Part shown: positions 5,777 to 50,602 of the stretch, one piece after another
Layout of the letters: each line of letters starts with the position of its first letter
Numbering within the stretch: position 1 is the first letter of the stretch
Source: Cyanobacteria bacterium REEB446
Lineage (GTDB): Bacteria; Cyanobacteriota; Vampirovibrionia; LMEP-6097
DNA length: 64,000 bases
Assembly (NCBI GenBank): GCA_018970325.1
Contig: JAGWWP010000002.1
Coordinates: 24,693 to 88,692 of the forward strand
Reading direction: 5' to 3'
The notes under the pieces: model-generated
Databases searched by the model: none
What the model saw: only the letters and a program-made list of their open reading frames with translations
Told to the model about the DNA's origin: nothing
Program-made: the position numbers and the translations under genes

Positions 5777-6376
5777 TTAATTCTCTTTTATGGATAAGAT
5801 TTTTTCTAATTTTTGAGTCTGAGTATTTATAAGTATTTCTATGATTAAATTACGTGAAGAATTTTCTGTATCAGTGAAAGTTTCCTTCCCAAAGCAGATA
5901 ATTTTTACTAAGACTTTATCTATATTCTCAGTGTAAATTTTATTTATTTGAAACTCACTGTTGATCTTGTTTTGACTACGAGCTTCTATTTCTTGTATGA
6001 GGTACTCCGTGAAGAAAGTCTCTTCAGTATTCTCTTTTAGCCACTTGGAGTGTTCTTCCTGTCTGTTTGTGTATTTAGAAAATAGCTTAGAGAGATATGC
6101 TTGAGTGAAATTTTCTATATTGAAATCACTGCTTCCATTGATAGATAAAGCTTTTTGGGCTCTAGTGTTTTTAGAATTATCCTTGTTTTTTAAAACACTG
6201 CTATCAATAAAAACTCTATTTCTACTGTTTAAAAGCTTATTACAGTTATGAATTTCACACATTGCTAATGCTAGAGATATAGATAGAAAGAGGATTATAC
6301 TTAGCAGTATTTTTACTATCGAAGGCAGGTAAAGTATTTTAAGCAAATATTTTAAAGAGTTATATTTTAAGACCAT
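5777..6376 (-). CDS. Hypothetical bitopic membrane protein
   Basis: 199 aa with a single N-terminal TM (LPSIVKILLSIILFLSISLALA). It overlaps the upstream gene's end by 10 nt, which indicates translational coupling within the cluster. Confidence 0.4.
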   Translation of the reverse strand: MVLKYNSLKYLLKILYLPSIVKILLSIILFLSISLALAMCEIHNCNKLLNSRNRVFIDSSVLKNKDNSKNTRAQKALSINGSSDFNIENFTQAYLSKLFSKYTNRQEEHSKWLKENTEETFFTEYLIQEIEARSQNKINSEFQINKIYTENIDKVLVKIICFGKETFTDTENSSRNLIIEILINTQTQKLEKILSIKEN

Positions 6377-8700
6377 ATATTTTTCTCCTGCATTTTTTCT
6401 AGTGTCTGTCTTGCGATGGACATATTATCGAGAAAGCTGGCATGGCTAGAATCTTTTAGATTAGCAGCTTTAATTTCATTAAAGATTAACTGCCTCTCTC
6501 TCACGACTTCTGCACTGGAGTTCGTTAATATTAGTTCATCTTGATCTGCTTTAAATTTAATTAAACCAGAGAATTTAGAAGTTTTAAGTAGTGCTGTACC
6601 CCTGTCTTTAATCTCTTGCGATTCTAGTAGCTTCAGTTCTCGCTCATTAAGATTTAAGTGGCTGCCCAACTCAGCTTTATCTGTATTTTCTTTACATTGA
6701 AAGATGAAACTGCTTGCAGCAGAGGAGTGTATATCACGAGTTAAATCTGAGGGTTTTTGAGAAATAGTCCATAAGCCTAAATTCATAGCTCTGCCAGTTC
6801 GAGCTAGCTTGCTGATAAGCTTTTTACTAAGAGGGTTCTCTTCTTCATAAATTAATTTCCAAGCTTCATCTATCACTAAATAAATGGTGTTGTCTAGTTC
6901 TCTTACAGCGTTCTCTATTTGCATGAAAATATTTTCTAAGCAGAAGTTAGTCAGGGCTTTGTTTTTTTCGATACTATGAAAATTAACTAAGCTTATATTT
7001 TTTTTAAATAATATTAAGTTCTTAAATGACTCTGGGGAATTATAAATTTCCCCACCCATATAAGCAGTAAAAAATTCCCAGCCTAGTAGTGTACTATCTA
7101 AAATAACAAACTTGGCATTAGAGCACTGTTGCCGAACTCCAATTTCTGCGTTTTCGTTGTCCTCATGATCCTCATGTACCCGCAGTACATTGCGGTCATT
7201 CGTCCTCCTCAGCCTTGAACTTGCACGTTCGGCAACAGTGCTATTCGGGGATTGCTCGCAATCTTCAATTCTTGCGTTTTCGTCGTCCTCGTGATTTAAA
7301 CTTCTTTTAATTAAAAGCTTTACTGCAAGTGACTTTCCTGAGCCAGAGTCACCTATGAAATTAATAGATTTATTATTGCAGAATTGAGTATTTTCAGGTG
7401 TGAAATATACTAGGGATCTATCATCTAATTTATAACCAATTAATGCTCCATTTTCCATGCAGGTTCTATCTTCTAGAAATGGATTAAAATAATTCAGGTC
7501 TTTAGCTGTTATTAAGAATGGGAGATTTTGTATTTTTTCTGTATAGAGTTTTCTTTGCAAATATTTAGCTTCATTGAAACTAAGTAGTGACTGACTAGTA
7601 GATATTTTGAGGAGATTTTTTTCTAGTATTTCTTTATTAGGGCTGTATAATTTCAGGATAATTTGCAGGTTTGCGATGAAGCTATTATCATAGATCTCAT
7701 GGTAAAGAGACTTTAGGGAATCTAAGTGACTTTTATTACTAAGAGCTGCTCTGGTAAAGCTTTGAAGACAATTTATCTTATGGTTAATTAGTGATTTATC
7801 TCGATTCAGATTTCGTTCTTGTAAAATGATGCATAATTCACTAGTGCAGCTTAAGCTTTTCAGGAAATTATTTAATGATTCGAAGCTAGCATTTTCAAGC
7901 TCAAGGTCTTTTAGAGAGAGGCATTTAATATATTCATGTGTCTTAATATAATTAATTCTTTCTTTGAAATCAGTCAAATCATTCTGTTTGTCTGAAATGA
8001 TCTCAAAACTTATTTTATTTGCAACACTAAAGAGCTGTAGGTGATAATTTATTTGCTGTAAAGTCTTTTCTGAATTACTGTTCACCTCAATTTCTAAAAA
8101 CCTACATGGATGAAATATCTTCTCTTCATATTGGGAAGCCCTTTCTTTAGCTGGATTCATTTCTTGAATATTTTCGGCATTGATGAAAATTCTGAATTTA
8201 ATTTTGGTTTTTGAATTTCGATATTCTAGTATATTTTCTAAAAGCTTCTGCCAGAGATGGTTTAATTGATCTATTTCAAGTTTGCTTGCTGTAGAGTAGT
8301 TAATTAATTTTTTAATTCTATATCTTTTACTGTAGGATTTTACTTTTTGAGAGAGAGGCAGAAAGTTTAGTTTTAAGGCTGATTTATTAAATAGAGATTT
8401 AGTATTTCTATCTAAGCAAGACTGTGATTGGTTTTGAGGTTTAACTAATAACGGATAACTTATATGTTTTATAAAGAAACTATTTTCGCTAAGATTCAGT
8501 TTAGTACTGCGATAGCAGATCCAGAGAAAGGTAAAGCTGCTTAGAATCCATATGGCAAGTGGGCTATCTATTTGTAGAGCTAGCAGCTGTATTAAATAGA
8601 GATATAATCCTAGAAATAAAACTCCTAGTGAAATTTCTTTTAAGCTGAGTCCACTAAAAATTTCTATATCTTTTTTTAAGGCTAAGTGTTTTTTTATCAT
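6367..8700 (-). CDS. Membrane-anchored P-loop ATPase of the VirB4/TraC - HerA/FtsK superfamily; carries two in-frame RPE-like insertions
   Basis: 777 aa. Two N-terminal TM helices are followed by Walker A INFIGDSGSGKSLA, Walker B YLVIDEAWKL and a downstream ARTGRAMNLGLWTISQKPSDL segment (VirB4-like RK..TQ motif). The repeat-encoded insert ...ERASSRLRRTNDRNVLRVHEDHEDNENAEIGVRQQC... lies between Walker A and Walker B. Confidence 0.55.
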   Translation of the reverse strand: MIKKHLALKKDIEIFSGLSLKEISLGVLFLGLYLYLIQLLALQIDSPLAIWILSSFTFLWICYRSTKLNLSENSFFIKHISYPLLVKPQNQSQSCLDRNTKSLFNKSALKLNFLPLSQKVKSYSKRYRIKKLINYSTASKLEIDQLNHLWQKLLENILEYRNSKTKIKFRIFINAENIQEMNPAKERASQYEEKIFHPCRFLEIEVNSNSEKTLQQINYHLQLFSVANKISFEIISDKQNDLTDFKERINYIKTHEYIKCLSLKDLELENASFESLNNFLKSLSCTSELCIILQERNLNRDKSLINHKINCLQSFTRAALSNKSHLDSLKSLYHEIYDNSFIANLQIILKLYSPNKEILEKNLLKISTSQSLLSFNEAKYLQRKLYTEKIQNLPFLITAKDLNYFNPFLEDRTCMENGALIGYKLDDRSLVYFTPENTQFCNNKSINFIGDSGSGKSLAVKLLIKRSLNHEDDENARIEDCEQSPNSTVAERASSRLRRTNDRNVLRVHEDHEDNENAEIGVRQQCSNAKFVILDSTLLGWEFFTAYMGGEIYNSPESFKNLILFKKNISLVNFHSIEKNKALTNFCLENIFMQIENAVRELDNTIYLVIDEAWKLIYEEENPLSKKLISKLARTGRAMNLGLWTISQKPSDLTRDIHSSAASSFIFQCKENTDKAELGSHLNLNERELKLLESQEIKDRGTALLKTSKFSGLIKFKADQDELILTNSSAEVVRERQLIFNEIKAANLKDSSHASFLDNMSIARQTLEKMQEKNIWS
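7124..7240 (-). repeat. Full-length RPE-like palindromic element (117 bp) inserted in-frame in the ATPase gene
   Basis: It has a perfect 13-bp terminal inverted repeat, cactgttgccgaa ... ttcggcaacagtg. The core gaaaacgcagaaattggagtt / gcaagttcaaggctgaggaggacgaatgaccgc is shared with the other copies. Confidence 0.8.
7241..7293 (-). repeat. Second, partial RPE-like element in tandem with the first (3' half type)
   Basis: Its reverse complement, cacgaggacgacgaaaacgcaagaattgaagattgcgagcaatccccgaatag, matches the 2083-2120 and 19620-19667 variants. Confidence 0.7.
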
Positions 8701-19468: not shown

Positions 19469-19518
19469 TAGTTTTACTCCTCAAAAACCTAATTTTAGCA
19501 CGCTGCTATTACTTGACG

Positions 19519-19667
19519 CTGAAATTGAAGTTCGGTAATAGTACCCAAAGGGGACTGCTCACAAACGTGCAAGGGAAACGCAGAAATTGAAATTCGGCAA
19601 TAGTACAAGGGGAATGCTCACAAACGAACAAGGGAAACGCAGAAATTGGAGTTTGCGAGCAGTCCCC
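19519..19667 (+). repeat. Tandem array of about three degenerate RPE-like elements between fba and rnj
   Basis: gaaattgaagttcggtaatagtac...ggggactgctcacaaacgtgcaagggaaacgcagaaattgaaattcggcaatagtacaaggggaatgctcacaaacgaacaagggaaacgcagaaattggagtttgcgagcagtcccc. The palindromic termini are ggggaNtgctcacaaac / gtttgcgagcagtcccc. The last copy abuts or overlaps the rnj stop codon. Confidence 0.7.
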
Positions 19668-21304
19668 TAATTTAAACCAGCGACTACGGGCTTAACTGTA
19701 CCATGATTACTTAAAACCACAACTTCAAGTAGTGGATATCTACGAGTTCTATTATCAAGGAAATTATAAATTTTAGAAGAAATAATACTCTGTAGTTTTA
19801 GAGAAAATTTATCTAAATTCTCTATAGAAGATGGCTTCTCTTTATCTATCATGCTTTCAAGTGCTTCGTGAGTTAAGCTGATTAGTTCTTTTTTAAAGCT
19901 CCTTTCATCAAAACCAAGTGGTAGTAGTATACCTTTAGTGTTTAATTTAGGTTCAGCACTATACTGGCCGTAAGCGTTAATATTAACGACGACTAATATA
20001 AAACCATCACTTAATATCATTTTTCTCTCTAGGATTATGTCCTCATCCAGCCTGCCGACATTGTCGTTATCGACCAGAACTATACCAGAGTCAACTCTCT
20101 CATTAATAGAACATTTACCATCTTGCATTTCAAGAATATCGCCATTATCTAGTACGAAGATATTGTCTGGATTGACTCCACATTTCATCCCCGTTTCACC
20201 ATGCTTAAGCAGCATTCGATATTCACCGTGACAAGGCATAAAGTTCACTGGTCTGCAGAGATTTAAAAGCATTTTCTGCTCTTCTTGACTAGCGTGCCCA
20301 GAGACGTGAATAGTTTGACCTAATCCATAAATAACATCAGCACCGCGAGCAAATAAGCTATCTATGAGATGATTAACTGATTTTTCATTTCCTGGTATCG
20401 GTGAAGCACTGATCAGTACTTGATCTCCAGCTTGTATTTTTACGTATTTATGCTCATTACGGGCGATACGAGAAAGAGCTGCGAATTGCTCTCCCTGACT
20501 GCCTGTCGTTAATATGACGAGATCCTCTGGGGGAATTTTGTTAACTTCTTCCTGTTTGATTATGAAATTATCAGGTATTGAGATGAAACCTAGGTCCTTA
20601 GAGATATTCGCTAAGTTAACCATAGATCTACCAAATATGGTTACTTTTTTATTAGCTTGTAGAGCAAGCTGCAAGACGATTTTCACGCGACTTACTTGGC
20701 TAGCGAACGTCGTAATAAATAACTTTTTTCTAGAATTGAAAATCATTTCTTTAAGTTTAGGTATAACGGCTTTCTCTGATGGTGTATAACCAGCTCTTTC
20801 TGCATTAGTGCTATCACTTATAAGTAAATCTACGCCAGACTCTCCAGCCGCAGCTAAACTGCGAATGTCGAAATACTGGTTCTCTACTGGGCTGTGATCA
20901 AATTTAAAATCACCGCTATGTACGATTCTGCCTGCTGGTGTGTCGATGATTAGGCAGTAGCTATCTGCGATACTATGATTGTTTCTTATATATTGAACTG
21001 AAAAATGCTGACCAATTTGAACCCTGTCTCTAGCTTTAGTCCAGACCATTTTTTGGTGTAGTACATTCGCTTCTTTGAGCTTGCTCTGAATTAAAGCATA
21101 AGCTAGACCCGGTGCATAAATAATTGGAATATTAATTTCCCTGAGCATCGGTACTATACCACCAATATGATCTTCGTGACCATGGGTCACTATCATGCCT
21201 CTGATGCGATCTTTGTTAGCGACTAAATAATTAATTTTAGGGAGTACTATATCTACCCCTATCATGCTTGCTGTCGGGAAGGCGAGTCCAGCATCGACAA
21301 GCAT
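19667..21304 (-). CDS. rnj: Ribonuclease J (metallo-beta-lactamase / beta-CASP RNase). The true start is probably upstream of the listed Met.
   Basis: VTHGHEDHIGG, the beta-CASP region and an RNase J C-terminal domain are present. The in-frame sequence upstream of the listed M encodes the conserved N-terminus ...KVKVIALGGLFEIGKNTWIFECGDDIMLVDAG, but no ATG, GTG or TTG lies in frame between the upstream stop (~21527) and 21304. Confidence 0.85.
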   Translation of the reverse strand: MLVDAGLAFPTASMIGVDIVLPKINYLVANKDRIRGMIVTHGHEDHIGGIVPMLREINIPIIYAPGLAYALIQSKLKEANVLHQKMVWTKARDRVQIGQHFSVQYIRNNHSIADSYCLIIDTPAGRIVHSGDFKFDHSPVENQYFDIRSLAAAGESGVDLLISDSTNAERAGYTPSEKAVIPKLKEMIFNSRKKLFITTFASQVSRVKIVLQLALQANKKVTIFGRSMVNLANISKDLGFISIPDNFIIKQEEVNKIPPEDLVILTTGSQGEQFAALSRIARNEHKYVKIQAGDQVLISASPIPGNEKSVNHLIDSLFARGADVIYGLGQTIHVSGHASQEEQKMLLNLCRPVNFMPCHGEYRMLLKHGETGMKCGVNPDNIFVLDNGDILEMQDGKCSINERVDSGIVLVDNDNVGRLDEDIILERKMILSDGFILVVVNINAYGQYSAEPKLNTKGILLPLGFDERSFKKELISLTHEALESMIDKEKPSSIENLDKFSLKLQSIISSKIYNFLDNRTRRYPLLEVVVLSNHGTVKPVVAGLN

Positions 21305-23472: not shown

Positions 23473-25086
23473 TTAGTGTCTGTGAGAGGTTTCTAGTAGG
23501 GCTGAATTTAATCTTTCGATGATTTTTTCTTTACCTAAAAGTACTGCAATAAACCCTAGTTCAGGCCCACTAGTTTTAGCACTAATGGCTACGCGAATTG
23601 GGAAAAATAGTTTTTTACCTTTGAGGTTTAATTTCTCACCAATAGAATTAATACCATTTTTAATTGAATCTTGATCAGCAAAATCTAGAGAACCACTTTC
23701 GATAAGGGATATGAATTCATGGATAACTTCTTTACCTTCTTCGGCGATCGTAATTAAAGTACTATCATCAAGTTTAAAGTCTTCAAAAAAATAGTTAATA
23801 TGTTCATCTATCTGTTCAAATTTATCTAGGCTTTCTTGAATGGATTCAATTATTAACTGGATTTGAGATGAATTAAATAGAGAATTATTTTCTAAATTGA
23901 ATCTTGAAAATCTAGAAACATGAGTTAATATTTCTTCATAGTTTAGTTTGCTTATGTAGTCACGGTTATACCAGTTTAATTTTTGAATATCGTAGATAGC
24001 TGGGCTTTTACTAACGCTAGTTATCTGAAAATCTTCAGCAGCTTCAGTGATAGTAAATATTTCACCATACTTAGCTGAATTATAACTCGTACCTAAAAGG
24101 TAATTAACGAGAGCCTTTGCTAAATAGCCTTGAGTTTTATAAGTGTTAACAGAAGCGATATCACCATGTTTACGTTTAGAGAGCTTCTGTTTATCCTTCG
24201 TGAAAATTAAAGGTAGGTGCCCAAATTCGGGAATCGGAAAATTTAAAGCTTCATAAATAGCGATCTGTTTCGCTGTATTACTTATATGATCTTCTCCTCT
24301 CAGAATGTGTGAAATCTGCATTTCATAATCATCTATCACTACTGCAAAATTATAGAGAACCTGCCCTGTGGATTTCTGGATAACTGGGTCTCCGCCAAGG
24401 TCTCTAGTATTAATGGATACTTCACCTCTGATTAAATCTAACCAAGTGATTACATGGTCTGCTCCTAGATTTAATCTAACGACATAGGGCTTCCCTTCTT
24501 TAAGTAATTTTTCTGAATCATCTTTGGAGACATCTCTTGATCGATTATCATATTTCTCTATCTCTTTACGAGCTTTCTGAGCTTCACGCATAGCGTCTAA
24601 TTCTTCTACTGTCGCAAAACATCTATAAGCTTTACCCTCATTAATTAATCTTTCTATATAACTGCTATGCACGGCTTCTCTGAGTGATTGTCTGACTATT
24701 CCATCTTCACCTAAACCTACGAGAGTTTCTCGGGCACGTAGCGGAACTCCAATTTCTGCGTTTTCGTCGTCCTCATGATCCTCATGCACACCTAGTGCAC
24801 TGCGGTCTTTCGTCCTCCTCAGCCTTGAACTTGTTCGTTCGGCTACGTGCCCTTCTGGCGTATCCCAAGAGATATTTAACCATTTAAACCCTTCTAATAT
24901 TTCTTGAGTAAACTGTTCTTCGCTTCTTTGTCTATCAGTATCTTCTAGTCTAAAGAAAAACTCACCTTGGTGTTTTTTTGCGAAAAGTACATTGTAGAGA
25001 GCTGTTCTGACGGTACCTAAGTGTAGATTACCTGTTGGGCTAGGTGCTATTCTGGTTCTTACTTTAGGAAAGGCGTTTAAGGGCAT
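23473..25086 (-). CDS. gltX: Glutamyl-tRNA synthetase carrying an in-frame RPE-like insertion
   Basis: HIGH region RIAPSPTGNLHLGTVRTAL and KMSKS region KLSKRKHGD are present. An extra ~45 aa, ...HVAERTSSRLRRTKDRSALGVHEDHEDDENAEIGVPLRARETLVGLGEDG..., sits between the class I catalytic-core motifs and is encoded by the repeat at 24732-24852. Confidence 0.85.
   Translation of the reverse strand: MPLNAFPKVRTRIAPSPTGNLHLGTVRTALYNVLFAKKHQGEFFFRLEDTDRQRSEEQFTQEILEGFKWLNISWDTPEGHVAERTSSRLRRTKDRSALGVHEDHEDDENAEIGVPLRARETLVGLGEDGIVRQSLREAVHSSYIERLINEGKAYRCFATVEELDAMREAQKARKEIEKYDNRSRDVSKDDSEKLLKEGKPYVVRLNLGADHVITWLDLIRGEVSINTRDLGGDPVIQKSTGQVLYNFAVVIDDYEMQISHILRGEDHISNTAKQIAIYEALNFPIPEFGHLPLIFTKDKQKLSKRKHGDIASVNTYKTQGYLAKALVNYLLGTSYNSAKYGEIFTITEAAEDFQITSVSKSPAIYDIQKLNWYNRDYISKLNYEEILTHVSRFSRFNLENNSLFNSSQIQLIIESIQESLDKFEQIDEHINYFFEDFKLDDSTLITIAEEGKEVIHEFISLIESGSLDFADQDSIKNGINSIGEKLNLKGKKLFFPIRVAISAKTSGPELGFIAVLLGKEKIIERLNSALLETSHRH
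24732..24852 (-). repeat. Full-length RPE-like element (~121 bp) in-frame within gltX
   Basis: A 16-bp TIR, gggcacgtagcggaac ... gttcggctacgtgccc, bounds the shared core gttcaaggctgaggaggacgaaagaccgcagtgcac...catgaggatcatgaggacgacgaaaacgcagaaattggagtt (reverse complement). Confidence 0.8.
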
Positions 25087-26633: not shown

Positions 26634-26745
26634 GATGATATATTATTACTATTTTACAATACGCTAGTGACTTAAACGTTTTTTTATTTAATAGTGAAGA
26701 TTTTATGTCTTCAAAGTGTTAATTGATGATTCATTAAGTAGCACT

Positions 26746-27933
26746 TTAGCTTTTATGGAATTCTAATAAGGCCTTCGCTAATATTCGAGCGGTTTTAGTT
26801 TGAAAGCTTTTTTTGCAGAGTAAGTCTGATTCTAATGGATGAATAAGATAGCCAAGCTCGATTAAAACACTTATGGTGTCAGGATTCTCTCTAAGTACGT
26901 GAAGGTTTTGTTTATAAATTCCGGCGAAATCTTGTTTAGATGAGGCTTTAAGTTTAAGAGAGATAAATTTAGCGAGATCGAAACTATGCTCATGAAAATA
27001 ATGACAAGAAAATCCACTTTCTTTATTTGGATCTCTGCCATCGGGCAAAGCGTTATGGTGCAGGGAAATAAATAAATTACATTTATTTTTCTTAGAGATC
27101 CTTACGCGTTCACTTAAACTCTTCTCTGTATCATGGTTTCGAGTAAGTATAGTTTTTACTCCTTGATGATTTAATTCTGTTGCGAGTTTTATAGCTAGGC
27201 TTAAATTTAAATCTTTTTCAAATATGCCTTTAGGAGAGGTAGCTCCTATTTGGGAGCCGCCGTGACCAGGGTCTATGCAAACCAAAAGAGGCATTTCACT
27301 AAATGTGAATGAGATATTAAGCACTTGATTCTTGAATTTAATTTTATGATTTATTACCGGCTTTTGAAATTTAATATCGAAGATAATATTTGAGATTTGT
27401 TCTATTTTGATTTCAGGATTTAACTCTGAATAATGAATCCAGTCTAAATCTTGCTCCATGATGCCTAAATCTAATCTATAGTGATAAGCGTTAATTTTTT
27501 TTAATTTGTAATCAGGAAGTGAATTTAATGGAATAGATATATCTTTATTACTTATTAAGATGCTCCGTAGAATATTACCTGAACTAGCAGGTTCGTTAAT
27601 AGCCCCTTGAGTAGAAGTTCTTATAGTTTTATGATTTTTATATTCTGAATTGAGTGTGTTGAAGGCTTGGTAAGGATGAGCATAAGCTATAGGGTTTGGA
27701 TTGTTATTAATATTTAGAACACCATAAATCCTGCGTGTGAAGGACTTTCCGTCGATATTGATTCGTATTTTATTCTCACCGAGTTTGAGTCGAATTAGTT
27801 TACAGAAATTACCATTTTTCTCAAGCTGGATAGCTGAATGGTTTATTAGACAAGAGAGTCGAGCTGAGCCAAGTATGAAAATCTCTTTACTATCAGTTTC
27901 ATGTCCTTCTGGAGGATAGGCTAACATTGGCAA
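26746..27933 (-). CDS. N-acetylmuramoyl-L-alanine amidase (Amidase_3 family) with an N-terminal targeting domain
   Basis: The C-terminal VCIDPGHGG...GATSPKG...E...LHHNA... pattern is the zinc amidase_3 signature. Confidence 0.75.
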   Translation of the reverse strand: MPMLAYPPEGHETDSKEIFILGSARLSCLINHSAIQLEKNGNFCKLIRLKLGENKIRINIDGKSFTRRIYGVLNINNNPNPIAYAHPYQAFNTLNSEYKNHKTIRTSTQGAINEPASSGNILRSILISNKDISIPLNSLPDYKLKKINAYHYRLDLGIMEQDLDWIHYSELNPEIKIEQISNIIFDIKFQKPVINHKIKFKNQVLNISFTFSEMPLLVCIDPGHGGSQIGATSPKGIFEKDLNLSLAIKLATELNHQGVKTILTRNHDTEKSLSERVRISKKNKCNLFISLHHNALPDGRDPNKESGFSCHYFHEHSFDLAKFISLKLKASSKQDFAGIYKQNLHVLRENPDTISVLIELGYLIHPLESDLLCKKSFQTKTARILAKALLEFHKS

Positions 27934-40093: not shown

Positions 40094-40289
40094 GAGACCA
40101 CTGCACAACGTGCAGTTTCAAGGCTGAGGAGGACGAATGACCGCAGTGTACGGCTAATTTCCAGCGATGCCGAGCATGCGACATTAATGTTATATGCGAG
40201 CAAGCGGAAATACAAGCTTGATTTATCAAGCTTACATGAGGATCATGAGGACGACGAAAACGCAGAAAATGGAGTTGTGCAATGGTCTC
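40094..40289 (+). repeat. Composite RPE-like element split by a ~75-bp nested insertion; 16-bp TIR gagaccaYtgcacaac
   Basis: The 5' part is gagaccactgcacaacgtgcagtttcaaggctgaggaggacgaatgaccgcagtgtac. An unrelated 40152-40224 segment follows, containing a perfect 20-bp palindrome aagcttgatttatcaagctt. The 3' part is catgaggatcatgaggacgacgaaaacgcagaaaatggagttgtgcaatggtctc. In other copies the two halves are contiguous. Confidence 0.7.
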
Positions 40290-49024: not shown

Positions 49025-50602
49025 TTACGCACTTGGTATTAGTCTTTGAAAAATTTGAATATAGTAATCATCTTCGACGAAAACATAACGATTGTAAATT
49101 AAGCTTTTACCATCAGGACTCCAGTGTATGCCATTGATTGGCGCTTCTCTGCACTGTTGTAGAGCTTCAATTTCTGCGTTTTCGTCGTCTCCATTGATGT
49201 TAATTGTATTGCCATCTTGCGCGTTAACTAAATATATCTGGTTGTTAGACACTGCTGAAATATACTTATCATCAGGGCTGAGATTGAATTGTGACTGGAC
49301 AGAGTATTTGAAATTTGTTATTTGTTTAACAGGCTGATTTGTGATTGTATTTTTAGTATTTTCAGCACTGTTCACTGAGTAGATTTGAACGATACCATTA
49401 TCATCTTTCATTAGAAAATAGATATGGCTTCCATCTGCTGAGCTGCGTAGCCTAAAACGTGGTCCCTGAAGCCCAGGGTATTTCCTATCTGTAGTAAAAG
49501 TAATTCTTCTTTGTGTGAATCCTGCTGGTACATTAGGTCTGCTATTTAAACTCCCTTCTAGTGGTTTATCTGTAAGTGATTGAGTTATATCATTTGGAAT
49601 ATCTGCTATAAAAACTTCTGTAACTAAAGTCCCATCTAGTGAACGGACATTTCCTTGAAAGGCTATGGCTCGTGTCTGCTGTGAACCATTGTGAACAGTG
49701 CTATCGTCTTTCGTGTAACCGTTTTTACCCAGCCAGCACTCATCGAAAGCTCGTTCTATTTCATCACTACCGAATTTAGGATTTTCTGTAACCTCAGCTG
49801 CGACTACCGCGAAGTAAGTTCCTCTGAAATTCTCTTCAGGGCACTGCTCGCGAACTCCAATTTCTGCGTTTTCGCCCGCCTCATGATCCTCATGAATATT
49901 CTCTATCATCGTCATCACGCCGATAGTCCTCAAGTCTTTTCTTTCACTTGAAGAAGTTTTTTCTAAACATTCTATAAGGTAATCGTTATAGGTAAAGCTA
50001 ATCCACTTGCCATCAGCACTCCAAGTATGAGCATGGGTTCCACCTCTTAAAGCTCCTTTGGTAAGTGGTTCTTGAATATTCCTACCTTCCGCATGATAAC
50101 ACTGCTGCCGAACTCCAATTTCTGCGTTTTCGTTGTCCTCATGATCCTCATGTACCTTGAGTACATTGCGGTCATTCGTCCTCTTCAGCCTTGAACTTGC
50201 ACGTTTGGTAACAGTGTCATTGTAAGATGATTGCGAAACTCCAATTTCTGCGTTTTCGCCCGCCTCATGACTCCCTGAAATAATCGCCCCGAATCTTCTC
50301 GTGAAGCTATAAGGTTTTTCTTCGTCGCAATTTAAAAGACCGTGAATGAAAATGATGCTGTCATTAACAGGGTTCCAAGCTGCTGCCCCTACCCCCGGTC
50401 CATAGATACTTTGATTTTTGGTTTTATAGAGTTCAATAATTTCTTTAGTCACAATATTTAACTTACAGATACTTCCAGTGCGGCTTATGTGAGTATCATC
50501 GTTGCGAGTATCGAAGACTAGCCACTTGCCGTCTGGGGAGAATATTTGTGTGGCATTGAGAGTGTGACCGTGTTTCCCGTTTGTTAATTGTATTTCGTGC
50601 AT
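49025..50602 (-). CDS. Beta-propeller (TolB/PD40-like) hypothetical protein carrying four in-frame RPE-like insertions
   Basis: Repeated SPDGKW / SADGKW / SPDGKS blade motifs. Inserts encode HEAGENAEIGV, KRASSRLKRTNDRNVLKVHEDHEDNENAEIGVRQQC, HEDHEAGENAEIGVREQC and DDENAEIEALQQC. Confidence 0.5.
   Translation of the reverse strand: MHEIQLTNGKHGHTLNATQIFSPDGKWLVFDTRNDDTHISRTGSICKLNIVTKEIIELYKTKNQSIYGPGVGAAAWNPVNDSIIFIHGLLNCDEEKPYSFTRRFGAIISGSHEAGENAEIGVSQSSYNDTVTKRASSRLKRTNDRNVLKVHEDHEDNENAEIGVRQQCYHAEGRNIQEPLTKGALRGGTHAHTWSADGKWISFTYNDYLIECLEKTSSSERKDLRTIGVMTMIENIHEDHEAGENAEIGVREQCPEENFRGTYFAVVAAEVTENPKFGSDEIERAFDECWLGKNGYTKDDSTVHNGSQQTRAIAFQGNVRSLDGTLVTEVFIADIPNDITQSLTDKPLEGSLNSRPNVPAGFTQRRITFTTDRKYPGLQGPRFRLRSSADGSHIYFLMKDDNGIVQIYSVNSAENTKNTITNQPVKQITNFKYSVQSQFNLSPDDKYISAVSNNQIYLVNAQDGNTININGDDENAEIEALQQCREAPINGIHWSPDGKSLIYNRYVFVEDDYYIQIFQRLIPSA
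49146..49197 (-). repeat. RPE-like fragment (copy 1 in the beta-propeller gene)
   Basis: ctctgcactgttgtagagcttcaatttctgcgttttcgtcgtctccattgat. Confidence 0.6.
49841..49905 (-). repeat. RPE-like half element (copy 2 in the beta-propeller gene)
   Basis: ggcactgctcgcgaactccaatttctgcgttttcgcccgcctcatgatcctcatgaatattc. Confidence 0.65.
50099..50215 (-). repeat. Full-length RPE-like element (copy 3 in the beta-propeller gene, 117 bp)
   Basis: cactgctgccgaactccaatttctgcgttttcgttgtcctcatgatcctcatgtaccttgagtacattgcggtcattcgtcctcttcagccttgaacttgcacgtttggtaacagtg. Near-identical to 7124-7240. Confidence 0.8.
50230..50275 (-). repeat. RPE-like half element (copy 4 in the beta-propeller gene)
   Basis: ttgcgaaactccaatttctgcgttttcgcccgcctcatgactccc. 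Confidence 0.6.

Follow-up and report, generated by a model that had tools for sequence, protein, structure and literature searches.

The 64,000-nt stretch analysed here (hereafter the window) belongs to contig JAGWWP010000002.1 of Cyanobacteria bacterium REEB446, a genome of the GTDB lineage Vampirovibrionia, and carries on its minus strand gltX, the gene for glutamyl-tRNA synthetase (GluRS), which is interrupted by a palindromic element of 121 nt. A preliminary description of this DNA had proposed that the element lies in frame within an intact gltX, and both the sequence at the site and the open reading frame (ORF) agree with this; the ORF list shows neither a stop codon nor a frameshift over the 537 amino acids, and the gene is thus no pseudogene. 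The translated product matched the Pfam families tRNA-synt_1c (E = 4.9e-88; full length, 1–314 of 314) and Anticodon_2 (E = 3.6e-20; full length, 10–141 of 141), and its HLGT (HIGH-type) and KLSKR (KMSKS-type) motifs fell in invariant columns of an 18-sequence alignment. With both domains complete, the motifs present, the ORF intact and a ratio of nonsynonymous to synonymous divergence (dN/dS, omega) of 0.098 outside the insert, GltX has the features of a bacterial class I GluRS. The insertion is not a singular case; it is one copy of a family with more than 100 copies that lie in frame in many genes. As argued below, the 121-nt insert is very probably a copy of a non-autonomous family of low-G+C Melainabacteria of the MITE (miniature inverted-repeat transposable element) type, which is frame-neutral and tolerated in genes.

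The terminal inverted repeats (TIRs) of the gltX element are 16 nt long, as previously described, and the two arms, separated by 89 nt, are complementary at 15 of 16 positions (94%). The arm pattern, with up to 3 mismatches allowed, occurred three times in the window against 0.05 occurrences expected. The element has a G+C content of 55%, compared with 35% for both the window and the gene. Its predicted folding was more stable than that of 200 of 200 shuffled sequences (z = -4.2 as RNA and as DNA; -48.9 kcal/mol as RNA). Only the terminal stem (16 bp) and an apical stem (6 bp) represent real pairing; the interior pairs of the folds were rejected as structure, since each of them stands alone and the halves of the interior form a direct rather than an inverted repeat. 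The element is flanked by a 5-bp target-site duplication (TSD), the two copies of which agree at four of five positions both in the window (GAGAA/CAGAA) and in the syntenic locus L003 from a relative (CAGGA/CAGAA), which implies that CAGAA was the probable ancestral target. Together, the 121 nt of the element and the 5 bp of the TSD form an inserted unit of 126 nt, or 42 codons, rather than the approximately 45 residues first estimated. The insert peptide, which had been quoted correctly, contains VHEDHEDDENAEIGVPLR and is bounded by the junction residues G-H-V ... P-L-R-A-R-E, whereas ETLVGLGEDG, previously counted as part of the insert, proved to be host sequence in the ortholog alignment.

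Table 1. Positions of gltX, its inserted element and further copies of the element family in the window.
Feature	Position	Strand	Basis or remarks
gltX (glutamate--tRNA ligase), host of the element	23473..25086	-	Intact 537-aa ORF; Pfam matches; orthologues named glutamyl-tRNA synthetase
MITE-like element, 121 nt	24732..24852	-	Sense on gene strand, read as GHVAERTSSRLRRTKDRSALGVHEDHEDDENAEIGVPLRA; canonical family length
TIR arm, 3' arm in gene sense, GTTCCGCTACGTGCCC	24732..24747		Repeat search; covariation of the 16 terminal pairs (61 copies)
TIR arm, 5' arm in gene sense, GGGCACGTAGCCGAAC	24837..24852		Repeat search; covariation (61 copies)
Apical hairpin, 6-bp stem and 5-nt loop	24784..24800		RNA and DNA folds; 100% of cells paired over 61 copies, double changes in 2 of 6 pairs
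TSD copy, TTCTC on + strand, GAGAA in gene sense	24727..24731		Family-wide 5-bp TSD
TSD copy, TTCTG on + strand, CAGAA in gene sense	24853..24857		Family-wide 5-bp TSD
Second full copy, 121 nt	7122..7242	-	In frame in ORF 6367-8700 (AAA_10-type ATPase); after partial copy 7261-7295
Third full copy, 121 nt	50098..50218	-	In frame in ORF 49025-50602 (DUF3748/beta-propeller)
In-frame partial copies in ORF 49025-50602	50230-50272, 49835-49898, 49143-49194		Profile matches
Long-form copy between genes, 196 nt, apex longer by about 75-80 nt	40094..40289	+	Profile match; long form in 12 other loci
Deletion derivatives of ~62 nt in tandem between genes, retaining both arms but not the centre	19516..19671	+	Three units here, one in syntenic L003

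The nearest database proteins to GltX were GluRSs of Melainabacteria, with Caenarcaniphilales among the named matches. In the 18-sequence alignment, the window protein shared the extra residues with P0001 (95% identical, 537 aa) alone; P0002 (82% identical by BLASTP, 501 aa) and all more distant orthologues lacked them. In the 15 aligned orthologues with identities between 82% and 41%, the insert position held no sequence, homologous or otherwise, in keeping with the preliminary description. P0001 is encoded by two independent assemblies (ENA ERZ28594090 and JGI 3300043488), which carry one and the same gltX sequence in synteny with the window. The filled site was thus recovered in three independent assemblies, and its presence in the two further ones means that it is no assembly artefact. 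Compared with the nearest empty site (L001/L002), the filled site is longer by a net 108 nt, composed of a gain of 126 nt (the element and its CAGAA TSD) and a deficit of 18 nt. The net gain is 36 rather than 42 codons because the host loop is six codons (18 nt) shorter than in L001/L002. A first MAFFT DNA alignment had placed a single 108-nt gap that left ~13 nt of one arm as host-derived; this placement was rejected because the family alignment assigns the arms to the element. The host loop, between WD and (T/V)(L/I)VGL (region 24858–24875 of the window), measured 9–12 residues among Caenarcaniphilales-like GluRSs and was shorter in distant ones, and its variation in length among the former was independent of the element.

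Of the 1614 nt of gltX, 86 (5.3%) are not the same in the window and L003. Outside the insert, omega was 0.098 with a synonymous divergence (dS) of 0.18. Conversely, the 126-nt insert block gave a dN/dS of about 0.50, with dN six-fold above that of the rest of gltX, and of the differences in the insert peptide 11 were nonsynonymous and 3 synonymous. Purifying selection is strong on the rest of gltX and relaxed in the insert. The insertion predates the split of the window lineage from the L003/L004 lineage, and, given the omega outside the insert, gltX has been strongly constrained ever since. The earlier suggestion of a recent event therefore holds in relative terms only, as the insertion is older than a split at this divergence.

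We modelled GltX using AlphaFold2 with the 18-sequence alignment, in which two of the 18 rows carry the insert. The overall fold was confident (mean predicted local distance difference test [pLDDT] score of 84.4; predicted template-modelling score [pTM] of 0.80), whereas residues 80–118, which belong to the insert, had a pLDDT of 27–35 and no secondary structure. In the model, the insert follows the helix of residues 57–69 and precedes the next strand and helix (residues ~131–149), and HMMER alignments of GltX to solved GluRS structures (6b1p, 2cfo, 8i9i and others) were split into segments 9–75 and 123–529. Because of these flanking elements and the break in the alignments, the insertion site is predicted to be a loop after helix 57–69, within the first Rossmann half and upstream of the acceptor-binding insertion; it does not lie between the Rossmann halves, as initially proposed. 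In the model, the insert takes the form of a disordered loop; we infer that it is translated and that its residues protrude from the GluRS surface.

We searched for related copies with BLAST and an nhmmer profile in the window and with a 21-base core pattern over the GTDB representative genomes. The window contained three full copies, one long form and about 10 fragments. The core pattern matched more than 108 stretches in the representative genomes and, among the matches listed, all but one lay in five metagenome-assembled genomes (MAGs) of ~36% G+C, whose titles read Vampirovibrionia, Candidatus Caenarcaniphilales, Candidatus Melainabacteria, "bacterium" and "Proteobacteria". For the MAG titled "Proteobacteria bacterium WB4_1_1465" (L010, L016, L025 and other RFQS01 contigs), which has 55 matches and a G+C content of 36.7%, the title is probably a taxonomic mislabel. 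The one listed match outside Melainabacteria, in Tengunoibacter (L035), was rejected: it agrees by chance at the 21 bases that the pattern specifies, and the likeness does not extend beyond them. The fetched loci, 852 kb of DNA in total, gave 247 profile matches, 107 of which were full length.

Anchoring on the left subterminal core (GAACGAACAAGTTCAAGGCTGAGGAGG) as well as on the right one (GAAAACGCAGAAATTGGAGTTC) was possible for 68 copies, and 62 of them measured exactly 121 nt. The ends of the element read 5'-GG(G/C)…(G/C)CC-3'. The 5-bp flanks of the anchored copies agreed at a mean of 3.49 of 5 positions, compared with 1.89 +/- 0.12 when flanks were permuted among copies, and agreement at four or more positions was found in 40 of the 68 copies against 5.5 expected (permutation maximum, 13). 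This TSD signal peaked in the exact 5-bp register only, with a preference for ATGAT-like targets. A test in which the stem was extended as far as pairing allowed had yielded little signal (15 words of 5 nt or longer, with ~5 expected), because A/T-rich, near-palindromic TSDs were taken into the stem; it was superseded by the fixed 16-nt boundary. Since 121 + 5 = 126, each canonical insertion adds 42 codons and keeps the frame. The other recurrent lengths, 130 and 196–202 nt, also become multiples of three when 5 is added. All copies inside ORFs were 121, 130 or 202 nt long, and the five copies that break this rule (75, 84, 120, 122 and 189 nt) were all intergenic.

Two of the six frames of the element (sense-0 and antisense-0) are free of stops. 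When a copy was counted as intragenic if its frame was open for at least 50 codons on both sides, 40 of the 107 full copies (~37%) qualified, and 39 of these 40 shared one orientation and frame, sense-0. The peptide encoded by the 39 copies reads …ER(T/A)SSRLRRTNDRSVL.VHEDHEDDENAEIGV…, or in shorter form …RTSSRLRRTNDRSVL.VHEDHEDDENAEIGV…, and is hydrophilic (grand average of hydropathy [GRAVY], -1.19) with 16 of 40 residues charged. The antisense-0 peptide (GRAVY, -0.19; pI, 11.4) was used once, in a membrane chromate transporter. Among 20 host ORFs sampled, 19 had Pfam matches, to unrelated families. The hosts include a Mur ligase, ArgJ, a RadA-like protein, an EF-Tu-family GTPase, an M17 aminopeptidase and an ABC ATPase, and further a DabA, a Na+/H+ exchanger, a radical SAM enzyme and others. 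The 39:1 frame bias probably reflects selection against the other five outcomes; insertion bias may be an alternative source, since the ATGAT target itself constrains the frame.

The interior ~75 nt of the element were almost invariant across copies from the five genomes, although divergence among the GluRS proteins of these genomes is far greater. In the arms, on the other hand, the outer ~12 nt comprised several types (GGCACTGTTGCC, GGGCGTGTAGCC, GGGACTGCTC(A/G)C and GAGACCACTGCA), each accompanied by its own complement. Pairing was quantified in 61 distinct copies, the relatedness of which inflates the statistics: 94.6% of the cells were paired, compared with 79.0 +/- 0.6% after shuffling and 25–53% with slid partners, and the covariation score was 0.424, compared with 0.159 after shuffling and at most 0.122 with slid partners. 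In the terminal helix, 92.6% of the cells were paired and 14 of the 16 pairs showed double changes. The two gltX copies, from the window and L003, differ from each other by double changes in three terminal pairs and one apical pair. The two subterminal regions are unrelated to each other, and the likeness of the ends stops at 16 nt. The apex GTGCAC-TAGGT-GTGCAT was seen with three arm types (e.g. in L015, L094 and L086), and the apex GTGTAT-CAAG-ATACAT with at least three. Apex and arm modules have thus been reassorted, which implies that copies recombine or undergo gene conversion with one another, or that parallel changes have recurred. Exchange between copies or templated correction of one arm by the other could contribute to the covariation of the arms.

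Comparison of close relatives revealed differences in the presence and arrangement of copies. At the 3' end of an amidase gene, L003 carries a complete copy (arm type AGAGACCACTGCACAAC, TSD TAGAA) at 8215–8352, and the window is without a copy at the corresponding position (26737–26750); the amidase ORF is 397 aa long in L003 and 395 aa in the window. The intergenic tandem of ~62-nt derivatives likewise differs, its three units in the window being represented by one in L003 (15434–15451). Two RadA-like orthologues (93% identical; L038 and L005) have a long-form copy in common, and in one of them an additional 121-nt copy abuts the 3' end of this long form. Solo right halves often precede full copies in gene sense, and they outnumber solo left halves (82 vs 31); in the window, a right half and a full copy stand together at 7261–7295/7122–7242 and at 50230–50272/50098–50218. 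The extra RadA-like copy fits this common order, in which a full copy comes after a solo right half, suggesting preferential insertion into or beside existing right ends with subsequent loss of the old left part. These loci show that the family has recently moved or been remodelled.

In the window, ORF 49025–50602 holds one full and three partial copies, all in frame, which represents either extreme tolerance or a gene heading to decay. The long form (196–202 nt), which was found in L005, L014, L033, L046, L056, L057, L088, L110 and others, has about 75–85 extra nt at the apex; two long-form copies are in frame within ORFs (RadA-like and ABC ATPase), and this form might stand nearer to the progenitor of the 121-nt form. 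A protein database search with the insert peptide returned 53 short hypothetical ORFs over copies of the element and none of the large host proteins, which were probably missed through the word-index prefilter. P0121–P0173, public "hypothetical proteins" of 33–71 aa, are translated element copies and likely spurious gene calls.

We assign the gltX element to the MITEs because of its TIRs, its TSD, its small size and its copy number: it leaves no room for a transposase gene, its TSD has a fixed length, and its dispersed copies show presence/absence differences. We propose that an enzyme supplied in trans, presumably a transposase of the DDE type, would insert the element by a 5-bp staggered cut at ATGAT-like sites. 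The peptide of the sense frame is highly charged, hydrophilic and predicted to be disordered, and insertions placed in this frame at surface loops would be tolerated, so that selection would leave them in place even in housekeeping genes. In gltX, insertion at CAGAA, within the variable loop that follows the second Rossmann helix, preceded the separation of the window and L003/L004 lineages. GluRS has stayed constrained since then, with the insert peptide drifting.

Several observations weigh against this proposal. The fetched loci contained no pair of left and right ends around a transposase-sized ORF; a search there for an autonomous partner yielded only the ~200-nt long forms and a few probably coincidental pairs. 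Nor did clustering of the ORFs of at least 150 aa from these loci produce a recognisable multi-copy transposase, the multi-copy clusters being AAA/DUF4143 ATPases, ABC ATPases and a nuclease-like-looking family. Arms that vary yet remain complementary around a near-invariant interior are the reverse of what is expected for a transposase that reads conserved TIRs. The gain over the nearest empty site is 108 rather than 126 nt and calls for the additional 18-nt difference in the host loop. In addition, a further, uninterrupted gltX may exist in the genome beyond the window, the low pLDDT of the insert may partly stem from the small number of alignment rows that carry it, and translation of the insert is deduced rather than demonstrated.

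One alternative, which we regard as improbable, is that the element is, or has become, a functional structured nucleic acid, an mRNA or single-stranded DNA hairpin with a role in regulation, mRNA stability or replication-related signalling, whose pairing selection would preserve and for which transposition is a mere means of spread. The strong covariation of the terminal stem would be expected in that case, as would the co-changing stems of the gltX copies (three terminal pairs and one apical pair) next to a freely changing peptide and the near-invariance of the ~75-nt interior across five genomes. However, the copies are placed indiscriminately, in unrelated ORFs and intergenic DNA and in both orientations, many of them are decayed fragments or deletion derivatives, and Rfam gave no match to the element at the gathering threshold or even at E <= 1. 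Moreover, arm-to-arm templated correction occurs in quasi-palindromes, and such correction, or reassortment between copies as seen for the one apex variant with three arm types, could give compensatory changes in the absence of selection.

It is much less probable that the insert is an intervening sequence removed before mature GluRS is formed, whether by RNA excision, as an intein or by translational bypassing. The stable hairpin that the insert would form in the mRNA (-48.9 kcal/mol, z = -4.2) and the indirect case for its translation would both be compatible with removal. Self-splicing introns are, however, far larger than 121 nt, inteins are far larger than 40–42 residues, and Rfam contained no intron family matching the element at E <= 1. 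The junctions (G-H-V ... R-A-R-E) lack the Cys/Ser/Thr and His-Asn signature of inteins, and excision gives no reason for the length + 5 rule or the 39:1 frame preference, both of which were observed. Hardly any credence can be given to a native, lineage-specific GluRS insertion domain or an assembly or binning artefact: although the site is a length-variable loop (9–12 residues in the closest orthologues and shorter in distant ones), the same 121 nt occur more than 100 times in unrelated contexts, are absent from all orthologues at 82% identity or less, differ from their surroundings in G+C content (55% vs 35%), are flanked by a TSD and were recovered at the filled site in three independent assemblies.

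If the gltX element belongs to a MITE-type family, the variable arms invite a more specific idea, which we consider rather unlikely but worth entertaining: that these are gene-dwelling miniature transposons with a whole-codon unit and an inert, disordered acidic/basic peptide, the ends of which are recognised by their pairing rather than by their sequence. Such recognition would point to a mechanism of mobilisation that depends on a hairpin or a single strand and nevertheless generates a 5-bp duplication. To our knowledge, no bacterial MITE or insertion sequence (IS) family combines co-varying arms, an invariant asymmetric interior and a whole-codon length rule.

The family offers dozens of natural experiments in insertion tolerance, in GluRS, Mur ligase and RadA among others. 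It also matters for annotation, as intergenic copies are called as small hypothetical proteins and inserts inflate the apparent divergence of host proteins. No description of such an element in Melainabacteria was found among the papers searched, and a scan of viral contigs yielded no copy of it.

We finally compared the family with known systems. Transposons of the Tn3 family make 5-bp duplications and have inverted repeats of ~38 bp with ends that start with GGGG. The Tn3-derived inverted-repeat miniature elements (TIMEs) resemble the present family in their 5-bp TSD and in ends beginning with GG(G), whereas here the ends are alike for 16 nt only and the subterminal sequences are mutually unrelated; no Tn3-type transposase was seen among the ORFs of the fetched loci. 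ERIC, BOX/RUP, BRE and the Anabaena MITEs are likewise non-autonomous and multi-copy, have TIRs and TSDs, are occasionally intragenic and sometimes have open frames (PMC3184786, PMC10969869). For these families, the reviews describe copies that lie in frame within genes as a minority or as disruptive of the gene (PMC3184786, PMC10969869), unlike the present family, in which ~37% of the full copies lie within long ORFs and 39 of 40 use one frame. PARCELs (PMC2996958) were rejected as a precedent, since they are tandem 25-residue repeats and not dispersed insertions.

The closest known analogue in behaviour is the Rickettsia palindromic element (RPE). In the portions of PMC10969869 and PMC3184786 that relay Ogata et al. 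(2000), RPEs are described as ~105–150 bp long and divided into ten families, and nearly half of the copies in three of these ten families are reported, in the same portions, to lie in frame in unrelated genes. Both RPEs and the present family are short palindromic repeats in this size range with many copies in low-G+C genomes, a large fraction of which lie in frame in unrelated, often housekeeping genes and encode a conserved peptide, and in both the host protein may accommodate the insertions in its fold and function. They differ in their hosts, Rickettsia on one side and MAGs of Melainabacteria/Vampirovibrionia on the other. The present family further differs from RPEs in its MITE hallmarks (16-bp TIR and 5-bp TSD), in the explicit rule that length plus TSD makes whole codons, in its several co-varying arm subfamilies around one invariant core and in its insertion polymorphism between close relatives. 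Because the host phylum is another and the likeness rests on description rather than on sequence, we do not count the family among the RPEs, with which it would be grouped by analogy at most.

The evidence that selfish palindromic DNA often inserts in frame into housekeeping genes has so far come largely from Rickettsia, an obligate intracellular bacterium under relaxed selection. The same phenomenon is found here in an unrelated phylum, at a comparable or higher frequency, with clean MITE hallmarks and an arithmetic frame rule (121 + 5 = 126), which suggests that dwelling in genes may be an evolutionary strategy of small transposons in general, and one that repeatedly supplies proteins with new surface loops. 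The phenomenon itself is known; what is new compared with RPEs is a clean, abundant and apparently undescribed MITE family that shows RPE-like in-frame behaviour in another phylum.

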